Below are positions 1 through 27,564 of a stretch of DNA of 32,000 nucleotides, piece by piece. The position numbers were made by a program, and so were the translations under genes. This DNA is from Mycoplasma sp. CAG:776 (GTDB lineage Bacteria > Bacillota_I > Bacilli_A > RF39 > UBA660): NCBI GenBank assembly GCA_000438195.1, contig FR903077.1:112814-144813 (forward strand), in the 5' to 3' direction. Every line of letters begins with the position of its first letter. Within the stretch, counting starts at the first letter, position 1. The notes beneath the pieces were generated by a model that was not told the origin of the DNA, ran no database searches, and saw only the letters and a list, made by a program, of their open reading frames with translations.

Positions 1-1
1 G

Positions 2-1873
2 GGTGGAAAGAAAGTAAATGAACTATCCACAGGGGAATTAATAACAGCTTTAGAAAAAGGAGAAGTAACTGAAATAACAGTTATGCCTAAGAGTAGTGAA
101 TCCATTTACTATGTATCCGGAAAATTAGAGGGATACAAGGAGAATGAATCTTTTGAAGCAAAAGTAGTAGAAGCTGAAGTAGATAATGTTTTAAGTTTAA
201 CTGAAAAAAATGAAATTAAAAAATATGAAACAGAACCAGATCCTGGATCAAGTCCAATATTATATATTATTGTAAATATCTTACCATTACTTTTATTAAT
301 CATTGTTTCTTATATTTTATTCTCTAAATTAGCAAGTTCTAATAAAGGTTCAATGGATTTTGGCAAAAGTAGAGCAAAACTTAGTGATGATAAACACCAG
401 GCTAAATTTGCTGATGTAGCAGGATTAAAAGAAGAAAAAGAAGAAGTAAAAGAATTAATTGATTTCTTAAAAAATCCAAAGAAATTCCAAAAATTAGGTG
501 CTAGAATACCAAAAGGTGTTTTATTAGTAGGCCCTCCTGGAACAGGTAAAACTCTACTTGCTCGTGCTGTAGCAGGAGAAGCAAATGTACCATTCTTCTA
601 TATTAGTGGTTCTGACTTTGTAGAGTTATTTGTTGGTGTTGGAGCATCACGTGTTCGTGAAATGTTTAAGGATGCTAAAAGAAATGCACCATGTCTAATT
701 TTCATTGATGAAATTGATGCTGTTGGACGTCAAAGAGGAACTGGCTTAGGTGGTGGACATGATGAAAGAGAACAAACACTAAACCAATTATTAACAGAGA
801 TGGATGGCTTTGGTGAAAATGAAGGAATTATCATTATGGCTGCTACAAACCGTCCAGATGTATTAGACCCAGCTCTACTTCGTCCAGGACGTTTTGACCG
901 TCAAGTAACAGTAAGTTTACCAGATGCGAATGAAAGAGAAGCAATTTTAAAAGTTCATGCTAAAAATAAAATATTAGCAAGTGATGTAAATATTAAAAAT
1001 TTAAGTTTAAGAACACCAGGATTTAGTGGTGCAGACTTAGAAAACTTATTAAATGAAGCAGCGTTACTAGCTGTAAGAAGAAATAAAGAAGCAATTACCA
1101 TGGATGAAATTGATGAAGCAACAGATCGTGTATTAATGGGACCAGCCAAAGTAAGCCGTAAGATAACAGATAAAGAAAAACGCTTAGTTGCTATCCATGA
1201 ATCTGGACATGCAGTAATTGGTATTAAATTAGAAGATGCGAATGAAGTACATAAAATTACAATTATACCAAGAGGAGTAGCCGGTGGATATACAATGATG
1301 TTACCGAAAGAAGAAAAAATTGGTATCATGACTAAAAATGAATTAGTAGCTCAAATTACTGGTTTACTAGGTGGACGTGTAAGTGAAGAAATGTATCTTG
1401 GCGAAATCACAACTGGAGCTTCTGATGATTTTAGAAGAGCAACTAATATTGCTAGAGCGATGGTAACGGAATATGGTATGAGTGATTTAGGACCAGTAGA
1501 ATATGAAGAAAAATCAGAAGGCGTATTTTTAGGTCGTGATTATGGAAAAGCAAAAAATTTCTCAGATAAAGTAGCTCATGAAATTGATGAAGAAGTAAGA
1601 AAAATTATAAATGAATGTTATAAAAAAGCAGAAGAAATCTTAAAAGCAAATAAAGACTTAGTCATGTTATTAGCAGATGCTTTAATGGAAAATGAAACCT
1701 TAACGAAAGAACAAATTGACTCTTTAGTAACAACAGGAAAATTAACTTCAGAAAAATCAGAAGAAAAAGATAAAACAGTTACTGAATTAAGAGAAGAAGC
1801 AAAAGCAAAAGGAATTAAAGGCTATAGTAAAATGACTAAAGAAGAATTAGAAGAAGCACTAAAAGAAGAATAG
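2..1873 (+). CDS. ftsH: ATP-dependent zinc metalloprotease FtsH (5' end outside window)
   Basis: The frame is open from nt 2 ([13 protein letters not shown]...), so the ATG at 83 is internal. TM helix [22 protein letters not shown], Walker A GPPGTGKT, Walker B LIFIDEID, zinc site HESGHA. Lys/Glu-rich C-terminal tail. Confidence 0.95.
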
Positions 1874-1890
1874 TGCTTTTTTAATCCATA

Positions 1891-1920
1891 AAAAAAGCAA
1901 CATATCTGTTGCTAATTTTT
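1891..1920. terminator. Shared hairpin terminator between convergent ftsH and the RHH gene
   Basis: AGCAACA-tatc-TGTTGCT stem-loop (1896-1913), flanked by an A-run upstream and a T-run downstream, so it can work on either strand. Confidence 0.55.
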
Positions 1921-2103
1921 AACTTTTTCCTTTTCTTTTGTTTCCATTTCATCTAATGCATATTCACATGCCTGAATAACAAATTTAGAGAAAGAAATAT
2001 CATAATCTTTCAATAATGCTTCAATTTTGTTCATTAGTGGAACGGGGAATCTTACACATTTATTCACGGATTCCTTTCTTTCTACATTCAAATTAAATGC
2101 CAT
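1912..2103 (-). CDS. Small ribbon-helix-helix (CopG/Arc-like) DNA-binding protein
   Basis: Likely start is the ATG at 2103 (MAFNLNVERK...), preceded by GAAAGAGG. The pattern '..VRFPVPLMNKIEALLKDYDISFSKFVIQACEYAL' fits a beta-strand plus two helices. The upstream part of the 82-aa ORF has no RBS. Confidence 0.55.
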   Translation of the reverse strand: MAFNLNVERKESVNKCVRFPVPLMNKIEALLKDYDISFSKFVIQACEYALDEMETKEKEKVKN

Positions 2104-2245
2104 ATTTTCCAACCTCTTTCTAAAATATATTGTATAGTAATTTAATAATGAATAATACATTCAAAAAAGTAATACAAAAAATAATGCGCAAAAGTTGGTT
2201 GTAAGGAAATATAAAATTTGTTAAAATAAATAGGGGAAGTGAATT

Positions 2246-2734
2246 ATGAATAGAGTAGATAAAATTAATTACTATTTAGACATGGCCGAAGTAGCATTAG
2301 AAAGAGCGACTTGCTTAAGAAAGAAATGGGGAGCTGTAATAGTAAAAAATGATGAAATTATCGCAACAGGATACAATGGAGCTCCAAGAGGAAGAAAGAA
2401 CTGTATTGATATAAATTATTGTAAAAGAGAGGCAATGAATATTCCAAGGGGAGAACGCTATGAAATGTGTAGGAGCGTACATGCTGAGGCAAATGCCATA
2501 ATTAGTGCTTCTAGAAAGGATTTATTAGATTCAACGCTTTATATGGTAGGAATAGAAACAACAAATGGCGAATATGTTAAACATGCAAGACCTTGTGCTA
2601 TGTGCAAAAGAATGATAATCAATGCAGGAATTAAAAATATAGTTGTTCGAAATACTAAAAATGAATATGAAATAATTGAAGTGAAAGAATTTATTGAAAG
2701 TGATGAAACGCTAGATACTATAATGGGATATTAA
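2246..2734 (+). CDS. comEB: dCMP deaminase (ComEB family cytidine/deoxycytidylate deaminase)
   Basis: Zinc motifs HAEANAI and PCAMCKRMIINAGI, 162 aa, RBS GGGGAAG 8 nt upstream. Confidence 0.85.
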   Translation: MNRVDKINYYLDMAEVALERATCLRKKWGAVIVKNDEIIATGYNGAPRGRKNCIDINYCKREAMNIPRGERYEMCRSVHAEANAIISASRKDLLDSTLYMVGIETTNGEYVKHARPCAMCKRMIINAGIKNIVVRNTKNEYEIIEVKEFIESDETLDTIMGY

Positions 2735-2747
2735 TATCCCATTTTTA
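2723..2747 (+). terminator. Rho-independent terminator after comEB
   Basis: ATGGGATAT/ATATCCCAT inverted repeat followed by TTTTT. Confidence 0.6.
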
Positions 2748-2828
2748 AATTCAAAAATAGAAAATATCTAGCAATTTTTAAAAAAACATGATAATATTAA
2801 ATAGTAAATAATAAGGACGGGGATAACC

Positions 2829-4451
2829 TTGAAAAAAAGATTTATTTTTGATGAAAATTATATTAAAAAATATGCAAAAAAAGATAGATTAAAATGGTTG
2901 ATCATAGGCTTATCTGCATTAGTTTTAATAGTGGTTATAATTATCGTTATTTTAGCTACCAGAAATGACACTGCAGATCCAGTAGATCCCGCCGTACCAT
3001 CATTTAAAATAAAAGATGAGTTAATAATAGAAGCAGGGTCTACATTACCAGATGTTACAGATTATTTTGATACTTTAGAAAATATTGATATTGATGAAAT
3101 AGAAATAATATATCCAGATGAATTTGAACTAAGCTATGATACTTCTTTGTGTAGTGAAAAAGAAATAGAAGAGTTATTTAGTGAAGAAAATCCAAATTAT
3201 GAGAATTATGAATGTATACAAAATTATTTAATTATACCAGCAACATATGGTATTACCATTAAGTTACAAGAGGAAGAATATACGGTAAATTTAATTGTAG
3301 AAGATAGTAAAGCCCCAGTATTAATTACCAAAAATGTAGAAATATATGAGGGAGATACTTATGAATTAAGTGATTTTGTTAATACATGCTTCGATACAAC
3401 AAGTGAATGTGATATCACATATTATACAGGTGATAAAGACGCTGAAGGAAACCCAATTGATTATTCTAATATTACCGCAGTGGGTGAACATACAATTAAA
3501 ATTATCGCAACTGATGATTATGGTAATATTACAGAACCAGTAGAAGCAAAATTAACAATATTAGAAGCTGAAGGTGAAATGTATACTGTTACTTTTGATT
3601 CAAATGGTGGAACTACTATTAGAAGTAAAAAAGTAAATGAAAACGATATTGTTATTAAACCAACCGAGCCAAAAAGAGAAGGATATAAATTCTTAGGTTG
3701 GTATTTAGGAGATGAAGAATTCGATTTCGATACTAAAATAACATCCAATATAACCCTAACAGCCAAATGGGAAAAAATAAATGAAGGCGGAGGAAGCCAA
3801 GGTGGCGGAACAGTTAATGTGACAAACGTTTCCTTAAATTATAAAAAAATCTATTTAAAAATAGGAGAAACAAAAACAGTAACAGCTAAAGTAAGTCCTT
3901 CTAATGCAACGAATAAAACAGTTACATGGAGTAGTTCTAATAATAATATAGCAACAGTATCAAATGGTAAGATTACCGGGAAAAGTGCTGGAACCGTAAC
4001 AATTACAGCAACGGCTGGAGGAAAATCAGCAAGTGTAGAAGTAGTAGTAAGTAACTCAAGTGGTGGTACAACATGTACCTATGGTGATACTACTTATAAT
4101 CCAAGTTATGTTTTATCTGTAAATTTAACCCAAAATAATTGCGCAGTCAATCCAAATTCTACACCAAATGAAACGTTATCAACTAGTGATTATTCTAGAT
4201 TAGTAAGGGATTTAAATGATATAGGCTTAAGAGTAACAGGTAATAATTTTGCACATAAAGTAGAACGACAAAAAATAAAAAATACTAGTGGTACTGGACT
4301 AGTAGGATATCAAATAACAATAACTGTAAGTATTGTAGATACTGATAATCCATATGCAGTTTTAACATCAAAATATATTTTAAAATCTGATGGCTCAAGA
4401 CAATTTTTGCAAAATAACATATGTAAAAATGGAATATGCCTAAATAATTAA
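2829..4451 (+). CDS. Membrane-anchored surface protein with a Listeria-Bacteroides (Flg_new) repeat and a Big_2 Ig-like domain
   Basis: TTG start after AAGGACGGGGA. N-terminal TM LIIGLSALVLIVVIIIVILA. 'YTVTFDSNGGT...REGYKFLGWY...ITLTAKW' is the Flg_new repeat signature. 'VTNVSL...IGETKTVTAKVSPSNATNKTVTWSSSNNNIATVS..GKITGKSAGTVTITAT' is a Big_2 signature. Cys-containing C-terminal domain. Confidence 0.8.
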   Translation: MKKRFIFDENYIKKYAKKDRLKWLIIGLSALVLIVVIIIVILATRNDTADPVDPAVPSFKIKDELIIEAGSTLPDVTDYFDTLENIDIDEIEIIYPDEFELSYDTSLCSEKEIEELFSEENPNYENYECIQNYLIIPATYGITIKLQEEEYTVNLIVEDSKAPVLITKNVEIYEGDTYELSDFVNTCFDTTSECDITYYTGDKDAEGNPIDYSNITAVGEHTIKIIATDDYGNITEPVEAKLTILEAEGEMYTVTFDSNGGTTIRSKKVNENDIVIKPTEPKREGYKFLGWYLGDEEFDFDTKITSNITLTAKWEKINEGGGSQGGGTVNVTNVSLNYKKIYLKIGETKTVTAKVSPSNATNKTVTWSSSNNNIATVSNGKITGKSAGTVTITATAGGKSASVEVVVSNSSGGTTCTYGDTTYNPSYVLSVNLTQNNCAVNPNSTPNETLSTSDYSRLVRDLNDIGLRVTGNNFAHKVERQKIKNTSGTGLVGYQITITVSIVDTDNPYAVLTSKYILKSDGSRQFLQNNICKNGICLNN

Positions 4452-4556
4452 TAAGAAGAGTGGAGCCCATTCTTCTTTTAGTATGATTAAAAAATACCAT
4501 TGAAAAATTCTCAATAATATGGTATAAATAATAACAGAATAGAGGAGAAAGAAAAG

Positions 4557-5784
4557 ATGAAAAGAAAAATCTTAATCCTCTCAACAGCACTATTAATAGT
4601 AGTTGGGGGGGGGGGTATCTTAAATTAAAAGATACTAACAAAGAAGGAGAATTAGTAAGTGCTGAAACTTTAAAAGAAAAAAGTTTAGTAGGTATTTATA
4701 TTGAAGAAGATAATAATTATACAAAGGTAGATCAAATACCAGATACAGGATATACCATTAATGAGGAAAAAAGCTATTGTAAGATAGGTGATGAACTACA
4801 AGATATGACCATCACTTATGATATGAATACAAAAACGCTAAGTATTGCTCCAATGACAATGAAAGGAACAAAATGCTATTTATATTTTGATGAAGAACCA
4901 ACATTAAAAGATACCATATTAGCAAATAGTAAAGTAAATGAAGGAACACCAAATTTTGCAAATGTAGCAACAAAAGGCGAAGGAATATACAAGACCCAAG
5001 ATGATTGGGGAGATAGTTACTACTTTAGAGGAGATGTAAAAAATAATTGGTTAAAGTTTGCAGGTTACTATTGGCGAATAATCCGGATCAATGGAGATGG
5101 AAGTATCCGAGTAATCTATAATGGAAAAAGTACTGCAATGGACGGAAATGATACCGTAATAAGTAGCTCACAAGTTTTTAATTCTAATAAAAATCAAAGC
5201 GAATATGTAGATATATGTACACCGAAGGAGAGCAACATGGAAATATAACGAATAGTTCAATCAAAGGAGTATTAGATAGTTGGTATAGTAGTAATCTAGC
5301 AAGTTATGCGGATAAGATAAGTACCGAAGCTGGATTTTGTGGAGATAGAAATTTAGAAAGCGGATCATGGAGTAGTACAGGGTCAAAACTTTATGCCGCA
5401 TACGGAAGATTAGCAGATAATAAAGCACCAACATTAAAATGTAGTAATAGTAGTGATTTATATACAACCTCATCAAGTAGTAAAGGGAATAAAAAACTAA
5501 CCAATCCAATCGGACTAATCACAGCTGATGAGGTTAGTATGGCCGGAGGAGTATTTGGAAGCAATAATAATAGTTACTACCTATATAATAAGGAAGATTA
5601 TTGGACCATGTCTCCATCTAACTTTCGCAGTAATCTTGCTCTCGTGTTCTATGTGCGTTCATATGGTGACCTCAACGGTACGAACGTGAATAATCCAATT
5701 GGTATCCGCCCAGTTATCAATATAGCAAGTAATGTAGCAATAAAATCCGGAAATGGCACATCTTCCGAACCGTATGAAATTTAA
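4557..5784 (+). pseudogene. Disrupted / phase-OFF secreted protein with a C-terminal lectin-like (DUF1566/CLec-style) module
   Basis: ATG 4557 with RBS GAGGAGAAAG encodes the signal-anchor MKRKILILSTALLIVVGGGG, then stops at 4626 because of the 11-G run. One extra G joins it to the 4805..5248 frame. A second one-base shift near 5191-5215 separates that frame from 5215..5784 (…YWTMSPS…ALVFYV…GIRPVINI). Confidence 0.75.
4605..4615 (+). repeat. Homopolymeric G(11) tract inside the signal-peptide coding region
   Basis: Counted directly: gtt-GGGGGGGGGGG-tatc. This is the only long G/C homopolymer I saw in this AT-rich window. Confidence 0.95.
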
Positions 5785-14870: not shown

Positions 14871-14894
14871 TTTAAATAGTAGGGAGTGTTCCAA

Positions 14895-17486
14895 ATGAAC
14901 GATAGCAATTTACAAGAACAATATGCATTATTAGAAGAGGAGAAAAAAGAAAATAACAAAAAAACTATTATAATTATTATCTTATGTATTTTAATTATTT
15001 TAGTAACAATTTTAGGAATAGTATTTTCATTATCTGGACGCAAGAAAACATGTACAATAAATTGTGATTTAGATGGTGATGGCATAATTGAAACCAACAT
15101 TGATTTAGATGGCGATGGAATTTGTGACGTTAACTGCGATACTGATGGTGATGGTAAACCAGATATTAATATTGATTGGAAAGGTGATAGAAAACCACAT
15201 TTCAATATTGATACAGATGGTGATGGAAAGCCAGATGTTAATTTAGTAAATAAGGATACAGATGGTGATGGAAAACCAGATTTCAATATTGATTTAGATG
15301 ATGACGGATGGCCTGATATTAATATTGATTTAGACAATACAAATACTTGTGATTTAAATTGTGATACTGATGGCGATAATAAACCAGACATAAATATAGA
15401 TGCTAATGGTGATGGCAAACCAGATGTAAATGTGGATACCGATGGAGATGGTAAACCAGATAAAAATTTAATAGATCAAGATACTGATGGTGATGGTGTA
15501 TGTGATTTAAACTGTGACACCGATGGTGATGGTTTTCCAGATACAAATATTGATACAAACGGTGATGGAAAACCAGATTTGAATATTGATAATGACAATG
15601 ATGGTGTGTGTGATGTAAATTGCGATACCAATAATGATGGTAAACCAGATGTAAATATTGATATAGATGGTGATGGTAAACCAGATATAAATGTAGATAC
15701 CGATGGCGATGGAAAACCAGATGAAAATAAAACAAATCAAGATACTGATAATGATGGTGTATGTGACTTAAATTGTGATACGAACCATGATGGCAAACCG
15801 GATATCAATATTGATATAGATGGTGATGGAAAACCAGACATTAACATCGATACTGATGATGATGGTGTATGTGATATAAATTGTGATACTGATGGTGATG
15901 GAAAGCCAGATATCAATATTGATACTGATAATGATGGAACATGTGATTTAAATTGTGATACTAATGGCAATGGAAAGCCAGATATCAATATTGATGCTGA
16001 TAATGATGGAACATGTGATTTAAATTGTGATACTGATGGCGATGGCAAACCGGATATAAATATTGACTATGATGGCGATGGCAAACCAGACTTTAATGTA
16101 GATACTGATAAAGATGGCAAACCAGATAAAAATTTAACAGATCAAGATACCAATGGTGACGGTGTATGTGACCTAAACTGTGATACAGATAAGGACGGCT
16201 TCCCAGATACTAATATTGATATAGATGGTGATGGAAAACCAGACATTAACATCGATACTGATGGTGATGGAAAACCAGACATTAACATTGATGTAGATAA
16301 AGATGGCAAACCAGATGTAAATATCGATACCGATGGTGATGGCAAACCAGATGAAAATTTAACCGACCAAGATACCAATGGCGATGGTGTATGTGACTTA
16401 AATTGTGATACTGATGGTGATGGAAAACCGGATACTAATATAGATGTAGATGGTGATAAAAATCCAGACATTAACATCGATACTGATAATGATGGAGTTT
16501 GTGATTTAAATTGTGACACTGATGGCGATGGTAAACCGGATACTAATATAGATGTAGATGGTGATGGCAAACCAGACATAAATATTGATACCGATGGTGA
16601 TGGAAAGCCAGATGAAAATTTAACCGACCAAGATACCAATGGTGATGGCGTATGTGATCTAAATTGCGATACCAATAATGATGGCAAACCAGACACTAAT
16701 ATAGATGTAGATGGCGATGGTGTATGCGATCTAAATTGTGATAATAATGGTGATGGTGTATGTGACACAAATTGTGTAGGAGAGCTATATAGTAGTGCAG
16801 ACTTAAGCAGTTTAAAAGTAGGAAACTATACATTAAAACCAAGCTTTAATAAAGATATTACTGATTATACAGTTGAGGTTGATAGTAATTTAACCGAAGT
16901 ATTAGTAAGTGCAACAGCTGTAAATTCAAAATCTAAAATAATTGGAGCTGGAACAGTAAAACTAACAAGTGACTCAACAAGAGTATCAATTACCGTAATT
17001 GCTCAAAATGGAAAGACTAAAACTTATAATATTACAATTAATAAAGCTAAGAACCCTAGTACTTCTGAAGAAGGAAGTGGAAATGTAGATATTGGGACAT
17101 CAGAAAATGGAATTTTAACTGTAAGTTTTACAAAGCCAATGTATGCAACAAATATATGGCCAGGATGGACGGGAATACACGAATTTACAATAAAAAATAA
17201 TTCTGATAAAGCTGTTGTGTATAATATAAATTTAATAAATGTAACAAATACATTTACAAGTGATAATTTTGTATACACCCTAGTAAAAGATGGAAAAACA
17301 CTTATCACTAAAACTCCAGCTTTAAAATCAGATGGTAAAGTAATTGAAAACCTAGTGATAGCACCTGGAGAAACAGCTGTTTTCCAAATGAATTATGAAT
17401 TTGTAGAAATTGGTAAACCACAAGATTATGATCAAGGTAAAAACTATAAAGGAACCATAGAAATACAAATTGTATCTGCAAATTAA
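14895..17486 (+). CDS. Membrane-anchored giant Asp/Cys-rich calcium-binding repeat protein (thrombospondin type-3-like repeats, cadherin-like beta-sandwich, TasA-like C-terminal domain)
   Basis: ATG 14895 after TAGGGAG. N-terminal TM IIIIILCILIILVTILGIVFSL. About 570 aa of DxDGDGKPDxNID units punctuated by 15 CxxNC motifs. 'LSSLKVGNYTLKPSFNKDITDYTVEV…ITVIAQNGKTKTYNITI' fits the cadherin-like beta-sandwich pattern. The last ~130 aa resemble the two small TasA-like proteins. Confidence 0.85.
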   Translation: MNDSNLQEQYALLEEEKKENNKKTIIIIILCILIILVTILGIVFSLSGRKKTCTINCDLDGDGIIETNIDLDGDGICDVNCDTDGDGKPDINIDWKGDRKPHFNIDTDGDGKPDVNLVNKDTDGDGKPDFNIDLDDDGWPDINIDLDNTNTCDLNCDTDGDNKPDINIDANGDGKPDVNVDTDGDGKPDKNLIDQDTDGDGVCDLNCDTDGDGFPDTNIDTNGDGKPDLNIDNDNDGVCDVNCDTNNDGKPDVNIDIDGDGKPDINVDTDGDGKPDENKTNQDTDNDGVCDLNCDTNHDGKPDINIDIDGDGKPDINIDTDDDGVCDINCDTDGDGKPDINIDTDNDGTCDLNCDTNGNGKPDINIDADNDGTCDLNCDTDGDGKPDINIDYDGDGKPDFNVDTDKDGKPDKNLTDQDTNGDGVCDLNCDTDKDGFPDTNIDIDGDGKPDINIDTDGDGKPDINIDVDKDGKPDVNIDTDGDGKPDENLTDQDTNGDGVCDLNCDTDGDGKPDTNIDVDGDKNPDINIDTDNDGVCDLNCDTDGDGKPDTNIDVDGDGKPDINIDTDGDGKPDENLTDQDTNGDGVCDLNCDTNNDGKPDTNIDVDGDGVCDLNCDNNGDGVCDTNCVGELYSSADLSSLKVGNYTLKPSFNKDITDYTVEVDSNLTEVLVSATAVNSKSKIIGAGTVKLTSDSTRVSITVIAQNGKTKTYNITINKAKNPSTSEEGSGNVDIGTSENGILTVSFTKPMYATNIWPGWTGIHEFTIKNNSDKAVVYNINLINVTNTFTSDNFVYTLVKDGKTLITKTPALKSDGKVIENLVIAPGETAVFQMNYEFVEIGKPQDYDQGKNYKGTIEIQIVSAN
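15051..16775 (+). repeat. Coding tandem-repeat array (short ~10-13-codon DxDGDG units nested in a higher-order repeat of about 260 bp)
   Basis: Near-identical DNA blocks, e.g. 16326-16455 versus 16586-16715 (gataccgatggtgatgg…gatgaaaatttaaccgaccaagataccaatgg…). Repeated gatggtgatgg(a/c)aaaccaga motifs throughout. Confidence 0.9.
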
Positions 17487-25378: not shown

Positions 25379-25407
25379 TTGACAAAAATCGACTTCTAAT
25401 ATATATT
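25379..25407 (+). promoter_or_regulatory. Putative promoter of the DGR accessory/RT operon
   Basis: TTGACA-17 nt-TATATT, about 110 nt upstream of ATG 25517. Confidence 0.45.
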
Positions 25408-25516
25408 TATAGTATATGAAAGTATGATAAACAAAGCATATTTTTATATTAAGTATTTATCTTAGTTATGATGAGCAGTAATAATCTTAACTACAAAAAT
25501 GTAGAAAGGGAATATT

Positions 25517-25924
25517 ATGAAGACGATTGATAAATATCTAAAATTTAAAGAGATGTACAAAGATCATGTAGTAATTATTAAATCTGGCAATTTTTATTAT
25601 ACTTTTGATGATGACACTTATATAATGAATTATTTTTTTGGCTATCAAATAAGAGAAAATAAAATAGGCTTTCCTCTAAATGCTAAAGCCAAAGTAAAAA
25701 GTGTATTAAATCGCAATAATGTAAATTTAATTGAAGTAATAGATGACTATGCTTATATTTTAGAATCTAAAAATGATAATGCTTATCAAAATAAATTAAG
25801 AGAAGCGAAAAGTAATATGTTAGTATCTAACATGTTAAATAACTTAATGAATGCTATAGAGATAAAGGTAAAAAAAGAAGAAGCTAATTATGAATTAATA
25901 AAGGAGTTTGTAGATGAACTCTAA
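25517..25924 (+). CDS. MutS domain-I-like small protein (DGR 'MSL'-type accessory protein)
   Basis: 'KYLKFKEMYKDHVVIIKSGNFYYTFDDDTYIMNYFFGYQI…IGFPLNAKAKVKSVLNRNNVNLIEV' parallels the MutS N-terminal mismatch-binding domain (QY..iK..yPd.ll.fr.GDFYE.F..DA…l.i.lT…GvP.ha...y...L...G.kVai). RBS AAAGGGA. Overlaps the next ORF by 11 nt. Confidence 0.7.
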   Translation: MKTIDKYLKFKEMYKDHVVIIKSGNFYYTFDDDTYIMNYFFGYQIRENKIGFPLNAKAKVKSVLNRNNVNLIEVIDDYAYILESKNDNAYQNKLREAKSNMLVSNMLNNLMNAIEIKVKKEEANYELIKEFVDEL

Positions 25925-26261
25925 TTTTTCTTTATTAAATAATACCAAAAAAACAATAGCATTTATTAATAAACAATTAATAAATTATCCTAAATCAGAA
26001 GTAGTGTTGAAACAAAATATTGAAAGAAACATGTATGAATTAATTGAACTAATTTTTTCTTATAGTATTAATGATGTAGAAAGAATAAAAATAAAATTTT
26101 TAAAAGATTTAATCATTAAATTATCAATGTTAGATTTTTATATAGCAACATCTTTTGAAAAAAGAATAATTAGTAAAAAAAAGTTTGAATCAACATCTAT
26201 GTTCATTGTCGAGATAAGAAAAATAGCTTACGGATTGGTGCGAAATGAAACCAAGTGTTAA
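25914..26261 (+). CDS. avd: Avd-like four-helix-bundle accessory variability determinant
   Basis: 115 aa. The helical pattern 'INKQLINYPKSEVVLKQNIERNMYELIELIFSY…KFLKDLIIKLSMLDFYI…ISKKKFES…VEIRKIAYGLV' matches the Avd / four-helix-bundle family (fP+sE+..L..+i….l.ll.li…). RBS AAGGAG. Overlaps the RT by 17 nt. Confidence 0.75.
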   Translation: MNSNFSLLNNTKKTIAFINKQLINYPKSEVVLKQNIERNMYELIELIFSYSINDVERIKIKFLKDLIIKLSMLDFYIATSFEKRIISKKKFESTSMFIVEIRKIAYGLVRNETKC

Positions 26262-27357
26262 GTATGAGGAATTAGTAGATATCGATAAGATAATTGCCAT
26301 GTATAAAATAATAAGAGCTAACACTAAAAATAGAGGGAAATTACATAAATTTGAATTATTTTATGCTAGTAACATAATTAGCATATTAAACGTTTTAAAA
26401 TATAAAAAATATGAACATAGCCATTATAATGTATTTCTGGTTCATGAACCAAAATATCGAATTATCATGAGTGAAATCATGAGTGATAAAGTGGTAAACC
26501 ATGTTGTAAGTCACTTCGTATTAGACCCGGGCATAACTCCCCATTTAATTCCGCAGAATGTAGCTACTAGAAAAGGAATGGGAACGAAAGAAGGAATACG
26601 ATATGTTAAAAAATATATTAATAAATTAAAATTAAATTATGATAAAGTATATGTTTTGAAATGCGATATCAAAAAATACTTTTATAGTATTGATCATGAA
26701 TTAATATTAGAAAAAGTAAAAAGATTTATAACAGATCCAGATGTTTATAAATTAGTAGAAAACATAGTACAATCAACAGATAATTCTTATGTAAATGAAG
26801 CGATTGGGAAAGTAATCAATAAAGAAATCAAACGAATAGAAGGATTAAACATTTTAGATAAGGAAATTAAAATAGCAGAGTTAAAGAGTATACCTTTATA
26901 TAAAAAAGGAAAAGGGTTACCAATTGGTAATATGACCAGTCAATTATTAGCAATATATTTTTTAAATGATTTAGATCATTATATAAAAGAAAGATTATAT
27001 TGTAAGTATTATGTAAGATATATGGATGATTTTGTCATATTCGATTATGATAAAGAGCGGTTAAAAGAGATAAGAAAAAAGATAGAAGAAAAACTAATAG
27101 AATTTAAATTAGAACTGAATAGAAAAACAAATATTTATGATTTAAAGCATGGGTTTGGTTTTTTAGGTTACCAATTTATTTTAAAAGAAAAAAGACTTAT
27201 AATTAAAATTAATTCTGCTACCAAAAGAAGAATCAAAAAAAAGATGCGTAAGTTAAAAAAGATAAACGCACCAAATTATGAACAAGTAAAAGCAAGTTAT
27301 ATGGGCTACTTGACAGTTGCACATAGTAAAAACTTACTTAAGAAACTAGACCTTTAA
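26245..27357 (+). CDS. Diversity-generating-retroelement-type reverse transcriptase
   Basis: Motif 1-2 'EPKYRIIMS…DKVVNHVV', motif 4 'GLPIGNMTSQLLAIYFLNDLDHYI' (the DGR-typical I/LGxxxSQ rather than the xxSP of retron or group II RTs), catalytic 'VRYMDDFVIF', thumb 'FGFLGYQF'. 370 aa with no maturase or endonuclease domains. Confidence 0.85.
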   Translation: MKPSVKYEELVDIDKIIAMYKIIRANTKNRGKLHKFELFYASNIISILNVLKYKKYEHSHYNVFLVHEPKYRIIMSEIMSDKVVNHVVSHFVLDPGITPHLIPQNVATRKGMGTKEGIRYVKKYINKLKLNYDKVYVLKCDIKKYFYSIDHELILEKVKRFITDPDVYKLVENIVQSTDNSYVNEAIGKVINKEIKRIEGLNILDKEIKIAELKSIPLYKKGKGLPIGNMTSQLLAIYFLNDLDHYIKERLYCKYYVRYMDDFVIFDYDKERLKEIRKKIEEKLIEFKLELNRKTNIYDLKHGFGFLGYQFILKEKRLIIKINSATKRRIKKKMRKLKKINAPNYEQVKASYMGYLTVAHSKNLLKKLDL

Positions 27358-27564
27358 TTAACGAGGGTCTTTTTCAATGTGGGAAAATAATAAGAAAATA
27401 TTAATAATTCCACAAACACCAACAATACCATAGATAATTCTTGTAACAACACTAGAGTCTTGAAATAAACTAGTAACTAAATTAAAATCAAAGAATCCAA
27501 TAAGTCCCCAGTTAATAGCTCCAATAATTGTAAAAATTAATGCTATTTTTTGTAATGTTTCCAT
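27358..27564 (-). CDS. DUF378-family small membrane protein
   Basis: 68 aa, two TM helices, with the 'IGAINWGLIGFF.FNLV' motif typical of DUF378. RBS AAAGGGTG. Confidence 0.8.
   Translation of the reverse strand: METLQKIALIFTIIGAINWGLIGFFDFNLVTSLFQDSSVVTRIIYGIVGVCGIINIFLLFSHIEKDPR

Follow-up and report, generated by a model that had tools for sequence, protein, structure and literature searches.

Diversity-generating retroelements (DGRs) that contain a MutS-like protein (MSL) have been described as 'Architecture D' (Wu et al., 2018; PMC5758913) and in the Bacteroides elements Bfr, Bth and Bun (bioRxiv 2024.11.15.621889), and they combine the same three proteins, MSL, Avd and a reverse transcriptase (RT), as the operon that is the subject of this report, which lies in a 32-kb stretch of the genome of Mycoplasma sp. 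CAG:776 (contig FR903077.1, positions 112,814 to 144,813; the whole stretch is called the window below). The catalogued MSL DGRs have a template repeat (TR) and an adjacent variable repeat (VR), whereas the window operon has neither within 25 kb upstream, the 228-bp spacer in front of the operon included, or within 4.6 kb downstream. Unlike them, the operon is a vertically inherited locus with a fixed place in the chromosome, and it is better conserved than the genes around it.

Other described systems also bear comparison. The DGR of Bordetella phage BPP-1 has the IGxxxSQ and YMDD motifs in common with the window RT, and the Avd profile aligns with its Avd over the full length, but its gene order is mtd(VR)-avd-TR-brt, it is carried on a phage and it has no MSL, whereas here the avd and RT genes overlap, the locus is chromosomal and no TR is linked to it. 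The RNA that lies 3' of the TR in relatives of the window operon also differs from that of BPP-1 and has a structure of its own. In the remote-target DGRs of Treponema denticola and Legionella (PMC5758913, PMC4891356) components act at a distance and leftover targets outlast the core, but there it is the targets alone that are distant, the TR keeping its place next to the RT, whereas here it is the TR that is missing from the RT locus. The literature that we searched reports leftover targets, remote targets and occasional double TRs, and in it we found no conserved clade of TR-less cores.

By its proteins the window operon is a DGR core, with an RT that falls in the DGR clade and with MSL and Avd homologous to the accessory genes of its relatives. 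The proteins are the known machinery of MSL-type DGRs, but the TR/VR pair that defines such an element is missing locally, and the locus is therefore not a complete DGR. We favour the reading, on which our confidence is evenly balanced, that it is the split, trans-acting core of a DGR whose TR and targets are encoded elsewhere in the genome. The features of the locus are as follows.

25379..25407, plus strand: sigma-70-type promoter-like site, TTGACA-17 nt-TATATT, agreeing with the consensus at 11 of 12 positions.
25408..25516, plus strand: conserved operon leader of about 105 nt, with a near-invariant core at 25454-25494 (TATTTATCTTAGTTATGATGAGCAGTAATAATCTTAACTAC, 41 nt).
25517..25924, plus strand: MSL, 135 aa, a stand-alone MutS domain I-like protein with a helical C-terminal extension.
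25914..26261, plus strand: Avd-like accessory protein, 115 aa, overlapping the MSL open reading frame (ORF) by 11 nt.
26245..27357, plus strand: DGR-clade RT, 370 aa, overlapping the Avd ORF by 17 nt.
27348..27370: terminator-like hairpin that straddles the RT stop and is common to the RT gene and the convergent DUF378 gene.
27358-27564, minus strand: convergent DUF378 gene that abuts the RT stop (Pfam E 1.5e-23).

An original prediction, made from the letters of the window, had already placed the three ORFs, both overlaps and the convergent gene at exactly these coordinates, and the promoter that it saw in the upstream spacer is the near-consensus site heading the list. The RT, the Avd and the MYG1-family protein encoded upstream are identical to the Mycoplasma sp. 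CAG:776 entries CDF12126.1, CDF12125.1 and CDF12123.1, respectively; the RT sequence was found identical on 234 public contigs, and the MSL sequence on 302.

The RT carries the motifs YVRYMDDF and LPIGNMTSQ, which the original prediction had singled out by their YMDD and IGNMTSQ cores and which are invariant across 16 homologues down to 55% identity. It matches Pfam RVT_1 at E 1.8e-19, and when the profile of the RT family was compared with the PDB, the top solved relative was 8UB7_A (E 6.6e-34), the RT chain in an entry whose partner chain is named Avd and which we take to be the Bordetella phage DGR complex. The same profile matched group II intron RTs at 2e-16, and retron-type and UG15 RTs more weakly still. 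In the phylogeny the RT branches within a set of RTs whose TR/VR pairs are verified as A-specific (13-24 mismatches, almost all of them at adenines of the TR), so that it has both the I/LGxxxSQ and YxDD motifs of DGR RTs and a place in their clade, and not in a UG/Abi group; the DGR-type core that had been predicted is thus borne out, and none of the three tests that the original prediction had named for its own refutation overturned it. The RTs of DRT/UG and AbiK/A systems, retrons and group II introns share the RT fold and give weak profile hits, but the window RT scores far below the NCBIfam cut-offs for defence RTs, retrons and group II introns (Drt3a, 67 against 200; retron St85, 42 against 235; group II TIGR04416, 106 against 300), and PADLOC returned generic RT hits only. 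No Rfam RNA was found at the locus, no intron or retron RNA in the window and no effector gene nearby, and the genes adjoining the operon are housekeeping genes and not defence genes. A phage-borne lineage was considered and rejected, as the best phage RTs in the phage collection examined are at most 34% identical.

For the accessory protein, sequence profiles and homology to the Avd genes of relatives support an identity as Avd. The ORF matches Pfam bAvd at E 1.8e-9 (38.5 bits, slightly below the 40-bit cut-off) and the NCBIfam DGR Avd family at E 1.3e-8, below its curated cut-off, and jackhmmer ties it to the Avd genes of TR/VR-bearing relatives. Its profile gave a full-length but weak match (E 0.13) to 4DWL, deposited as Bbp7 and presumably the Bordetella phage Avd. 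For the four-helix bundle that the original prediction proposed, the support is likewise from profiles; a single-sequence structure model is all-helical and of low confidence (pLDDT 59), and its Foldseek hits are meaningless.

The assignment of the first ORF to MutS domain I, also part of the original prediction, was confirmed by structure. MSL matches Pfam MutS_I above the cut-off (E 1.6e-5, residues 4-46), its profile matches domain I of MutS/MSH6 in the PDB (E 1.5e-5), and its AlphaFold (AF2) model (pLDDT 83) retrieved domain I of MutS, MSH3 or MSH6 as all of the top 50 Foldseek hits in the PDB, with a root-mean-square deviation from the MutS-family hits of 1.2-2.4 A over 70-85 residues. 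In the motif GNFYYTF, Phe26 and Tyr27 are invariant; the Phe of the Phe-X-Glu mismatch-binding motif of MutS is kept and the Glu is not. As a small protein of MutS-domain-I fold encoded beside avd and a DGR RT, it belongs to MSL, which is, as predicted, a DGR accessory gene already catalogued (PMC5758913, the source of the family definition, where RT-MutS_I fusions are found in three RTs). Such fusions occur in this lineage too: a MutS-domain-I-like module is fused to the C-terminus of RTs with ORFs of about 500 aa in the more distant relatives L037, L041, L044, L049, L054, L059, L068, L070, L073 and L077-L079 (L numbers denote the loci studied), and in L021, L028 and L029 a MutS-domain-I-like protein is encoded by a separate gene after the RT.

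What a complete element of this lineage looks like was seen in a survey of 80 loci encoding relatives in species-representative genomes, all of them gut or rumen 'Bacilli', 'Tenericutes' or CAG-type metagenome-assembled genomes (MAGs), each scanned for repeat pairs with mismatches at the adenines of one copy. At 45 of the 80 loci there were clean TR/VR pairs, about 100-120 nt long, whose 9-25 mismatches fell almost entirely at A. The nearer relatives (48-57% RT identity) have the order target(VR)-TR-MSL-Avd-RT, and the TR lies 5' of MSL in L012-L033 and 5' of the target gene in L082 and L083. Each TR is followed by a conserved RNA of about 150 nt with a long-range TTCC:GGAA pairing and hairpins, supported by compensatory changes at 12 of 21 pairs. 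The TR unit of the lineage thus has two parts, a TR of about 110 nt that is rich in GC and in AAC and, 3' of it, this structured RNA. R1, a covariance model built for the TR-associated RNA, recovers it in relatives at E 1e-11 to 1e-32, scores 35-40 bits in L082 and L094, and detects it at eight loci whose VR lay off the contig.

These TR units are modular. L022 has five in tandem (L022:8000-9600) with five different A-rich TRs, only one of which matches the adjacent VR, and one RT therefore appears to serve several templates in array-bearing relatives. Arrays of three to five units of TR and structured RNA were observed 5' of a single Avd-RT pair in L022, L033 (6000-7800) and L015 (6900-8900).

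Closer to the window operon, L082 and L083 (RT 65%) carry a TR and its RNA 5' of a 650-aa target gene that lies directly 5' of MSL-Avd-RT; the TR/VR pair of L082 is partly degenerate, with 16 of 24 mismatches at A, and its MSL carries a stop. In L081 (RT 68%) MSL is immediately preceded by a target whose VR is GC-rich, and no TR is reached before the end of the contig. Four loci outside the window's clade, L020, L028, L045 and L058, showed no TR/VR pair and no TR-associated RNA in 9-10 kb upstream, and L020 is sister to the group containing the window's clade.

The original prediction had taken the overlap of avd and RT as the place from which a TR was missing. The two ORFs overlap in every TR-bearing relative of the lineage, where the TR is upstream of MSL or of the target and never between avd and RT, and the overlap is therefore not the odd feature. 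The oddity is that no TR is present in the 228-bp spacer or anywhere else within 10-25 kb. The observation that no TR lies beside the operon did stand, and it held for the whole window: an A-biased self-alignment of the whole 32 kb gave no TR/VR pair, R1 run with filters off found no TR-associated RNA (best hit 12 bits, E 0.2), and a hidden Markov model (HMM) of the TR/VR family had as its sole hit in the window a VR-like gene end at 5610-5722.

The same holds across the window's clade. The window and L001-L011, L023 and L051, with RTs at least 77% identical to that of the window, are monophyletic in a neighbour-joining tree, deep inside the TR-bearing radiation. Most members have, one after the other, a MYG1-family gene, a spacer, MSL, Avd, RT, a DUF378 gene on the minus strand and a gene for a LolA-like lipoprotein, and the clade's operon occupies a fixed chromosomal site. 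The 13 orthologous loci yielded no TR/VR pair and no TR-associated RNA in flanks of up to 10 kb, and the TR/VR HMM, run over 181 kb around 14 orthologous loci, found VR-like gene ends only. When the comparison was confined to loci that reach 3 kb or more upstream of the RT, a TR/VR pair or TR-associated RNA was found in 0 of 10 of the close clade vs 31 of 35 other relatives (Fisher p 3e-7, uncorrected for shared ancestry).

Despite this, strong purifying selection acts on the MSL-Avd-RT operon, which is better conserved than the genes that flank it. Across the clade, identity to the window proteins is 86-94% for Avd, 77-86% for RT and 72-87% for MSL, whereas the two genes upstream reach 58-69% and 30-34% and the lipoprotein encoded downstream 75-80%. 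The ratio of non-synonymous to synonymous substitution (dN/dS) in the operon is 0.02-0.19 (Avd 0.03-0.10, RT 0.02-0.15), at a dS of about 1 or more, which is saturated. The original prediction had left a choice between a remote TR and VR and an orphan cassette, and a dead orphan is argued against by this selection.

Conservation extends to the regulatory region. In 10 orthologous loci with saturated synonymous sites, neither the -35 hexamer nor the block CTAATATATATTTATA varies, and the leader core at 25454-25494 is conserved across the close clade; 26 nt of it match exactly among L004, L007 and the TR-bearing sister L082 (L082 8395-8420, 5' of MSL). A resemblance between GAGCAGTAATAATC and GAGGAAGTAAT..ATAATC of the TR-associated RNA prompted the idea that the leader is a remnant of that RNA, which was rejected as unsupported: R1 gave no hit in the leader, an HMM of the leader matched the close clade only, and neither covariation nor an Rfam match was found in it.

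A gene of the target family is also present in the window:

4557..5784, plus strand: disrupted DGR target-family gene with a DUF6273-type C-terminus, about 20 kb upstream of the operon.

It was recognised by tblastn with the targets of L081 and L082 (E 8e-63 and 3e-56), and it has a GC-enriched, VR-like end at 5610-5722, ending in GIRPVIN, that scores 68 bits with the TR/VR-family HMM. Its signal peptide, read from the ATG at 4557, is put out of frame by a poly-G11 tract at 4605-4615, and there is a 1-nt deletion near 5208. Thus the remote alternative of the original prediction holds insofar as a distant target-family gene with a VR-like end is there, and fails insofar as the gene is broken and its TR was not found. 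A TR 5' of this gene, as in L082 and L094, was looked for and rejected, with a gap of 105 nt to the preceding gene and nothing TR-like in 1-4500. Poly-G tracts of 10-11 bases were seen at or just before the 5' end of other target-family genes as well (L082 6187-6196; L083 2267-2276), and in the window one G fewer restores the frame of the signal peptide; these tracts look like either slipped-strand phase variation or homopolymer sequencing error.

Targets elsewhere in the clade are arranged variously. L006 has an intact target directly 5' of the operon and L009 has two targets and an XRE regulator preceding the MYG1 gene, and no TR was found at either locus. An XRE-type helix-turn-helix regulator on the opposite strand directly precedes the target in four separate loci (L006 2592-4596; L009 1135-3264; L093 8210-10753; L094 8064-10666), which suggests that regulator and target form a module that moves as a unit. 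Target-family proteins are many, and contigs with target-family genes almost always start inside or just before the gene, at position 1 (L087, L089, L090, L091, L092, L096), as expected if repeats or population variation break assemblies at these genes, and such starts also hide any upstream TR.

The most informative of these loci is L094, where a TR and a target occur together with no RT in view. It has two TR units (R1 E 6e-8 and 4e-7) at 2.5-4 kb upstream of its target, and its TR-B matches the VR of this target, 14 of the 17 mismatches falling at A. Within 10 kb upstream and 1.5 kb downstream no gene is called as an RT, according to the gene-call table only, no RT search of the locus having been made. 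The VR of P0338, a target of CAG:776 itself (L087), matches the same TR-B with 6 of 8 mismatches at A. Across related genomes there are also pairs of target-family genes with flanks 90-100% identical and VRs only 30-55% identical (P0352/P0357, and P0338 of CAG:776 with P0350 or P0356), and P0357 comes from a MAG that also holds the close-clade locus L011. The GC content of the VRs was compared with that of the genome:

P0338 of CAG:776 (L087) and VRs beside known TRs: 0.54-0.57 (P0338 0.55).
VR of L006: 0.50.
VR of the window: 0.43.
VRs of L009: 0.35-0.38.
Genome background: 0.26-0.30.

We infer that this gradient may reflect the time since each VR was last rewritten.

A split, trans-acting core accounts for the selection on the operon, for its DGR-specific motifs, for the modular TR units of relatives and for L094. 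That DGRs can have remote targets, and that they work with avd, TR and RT provided in trans, is established (PMC5758913). The core operon of the window's clade would have become physically separated from its TR and from most of its targets. It would be transcribed from its own conserved promoter, with the three ORFs translated by coupling, and RT and Avd would form a complex on a TR RNA transcribed from another part of the genome and produce an adenine-mutagenised cDNA, which would then rewrite the C-terminal VR of DUF6273-type secreted or surface proteins. MSL, in effect a MutS mismatch-binding domain without an ATPase, may act on the densely mismatched heteroduplex of cDNA and VR, for example by shielding it from mismatch repair, a role that is proposed because of its fold and because host MutS lowers DGR mutagenesis in Bacteroides, where it restricts it 5-10 fold (bioRxiv 2024.11.15.621889).

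Several observations weigh against a split core. First, no TR was found for CAG:776 in the window or in the flanks of its orthologues, up to 10 kb. The sole target-family gene in the window is disrupted, its orthologue L088 is broken at a different place, and the two VRs are about 93% identical with differences that are not A-specific; from this comparison and the lesions, the window target is a decaying gene with a static VR. The cassette itself is damaged in the orthologous loci L008 (RT frameshift), L011 (several lesions) and L023 (Avd frameshift), and the system is therefore dispensable in some lineages. That the genome of L094 carries a close-clade RT is a supposition. Of the eight target loci examined, seven lack a TR in the sequence that could be read, most of their contigs being cut at the gene, and only L094 is informative; L093 and L097 are among the targets with neither a TR nor a called RT gene within 10 kb. 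VRs are invariant inside target clusters of 90% identity drawn from many samples, a clustering that biases against variants, and VR hypervariation was seen only between more distant family members and not between close strains. It is also possible that a second, complete DGR elsewhere in CAG:776 accounts for the VRs. Separately, a metagenome scan with an RNA motif of the L082/L094 type gave one chance match, on an unrelated 1.3-kb contig, and says little, for it missed L082 itself; viral contigs gave no match to the motif.

The operon might instead have lost its TR for good and be kept for a job that does not depend on one, such as reverse transcription of other RNAs, or defence or repair by way of the mismatch-binding domain. 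We consider such an exaptation unlikely, and a domesticated DGR-derived MutS-like/Avd/RT machine that works without any TR, from a fixed site and under constraint above that of its housekeeping neighbours, rather doubtful. An exapted operon would be consistent with selection stronger than on the neighbouring genes in the absence of any TR, VR pair or TR-associated RNA in the 181 kb around 14 loci, with the fixed chromosomal position, with a conserved leader specific to the window's clade and its sister L082, and with the VRs of nearby targets that are decaying towards genomic GC in the window (0.43) and in L009 (0.35-0.38). However, the DGR-specific motifs of the RT are unchanged, target-family genes are still beside the operon in L006 and L009, the neighbours are housekeeping genes and not defence genes, no defence RT family was matched at its cut-off, and no alternative template was identified.

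It is likewise improbable, in our judgement, that the system has simply lapsed, with a TR recently lost from this genome, intact ORFs that are an undecayed remnant and a low dN/dS that records past function. The pseudogene with its static VR and the disrupted cassettes of L008, L011 and L023, together with the broken MSL of L082, are what a lapsed system would leave; more than half of the candidate DGRs in surveys are defective (PMC5758913), and leftover DGR parts are known in Treponema (PMC4891356). Yet the TR-less state is clade-wide and accompanied by strong selection at saturated dS, so that a loss of function cannot be old. The three ORFs, the promoter and the leader are all intact in the window, the RT sequence is identical on all 234 contigs mentioned above, and another target of CAG:776 (P0338) has a VR as GC-rich as those beside known TRs.

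That a local TR is present and was missed, overlapping a coding sequence or too diverged, is close to refuted: some TR/VR pairs are degenerate and did escape the first filter, as in L082, but both strands of the whole window were searched in three independent ways, each time without a hit to a TR, and the same tools did succeed in 31 of the 35 relatives whose flanks were long enough, where a TR or its associated RNA was found, the sisters L082 and L094 among them.

Two other genes of the window deserve mention. The first, at 2829-4451 on the plus strand and immediately 5' of the disrupted target-family gene, encodes 540 aa that include a Listeria-Bacteroides repeat and a Big_2 domain, and its product is likely a surface protein. 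Further downstream (14886-17486, plus strand), an 866-aa ORF consists for the most part of a repeat of 36 nt (12 aa), of the type DGDGKPDxNIDTD and present in more than 25 copies, has a cadherin-like domain near its C-terminus, and is probably a calcium-binding surface protein.

DGR surveys usually demand a TR/VR pair near the RT and class the rest as defective, yet the cores described here lack a TR throughout their clade, belong to a common bacterium of the human gut and are strongly maintained by purifying selection. Should they act in trans on dispersed TR RNA genes, censuses of DGRs undercount active systems, and it would be more apt to regard the TR as a guide RNA that is modular and mobile, with which the TR arrays that relatives combine with one RT agree. 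If they do not act in trans, the operon would be DGR machinery that has been domesticated for a new task. In both cases, the compact MSL-Avd-RT operon offers a means of probing the MutS-like protein, which is topical given that host MutS restrains DGR mutagenesis, and the locus suggests that an abundant, uncultured gut lineage holds a class of DGR cores, split or domesticated, that is open to experiment.

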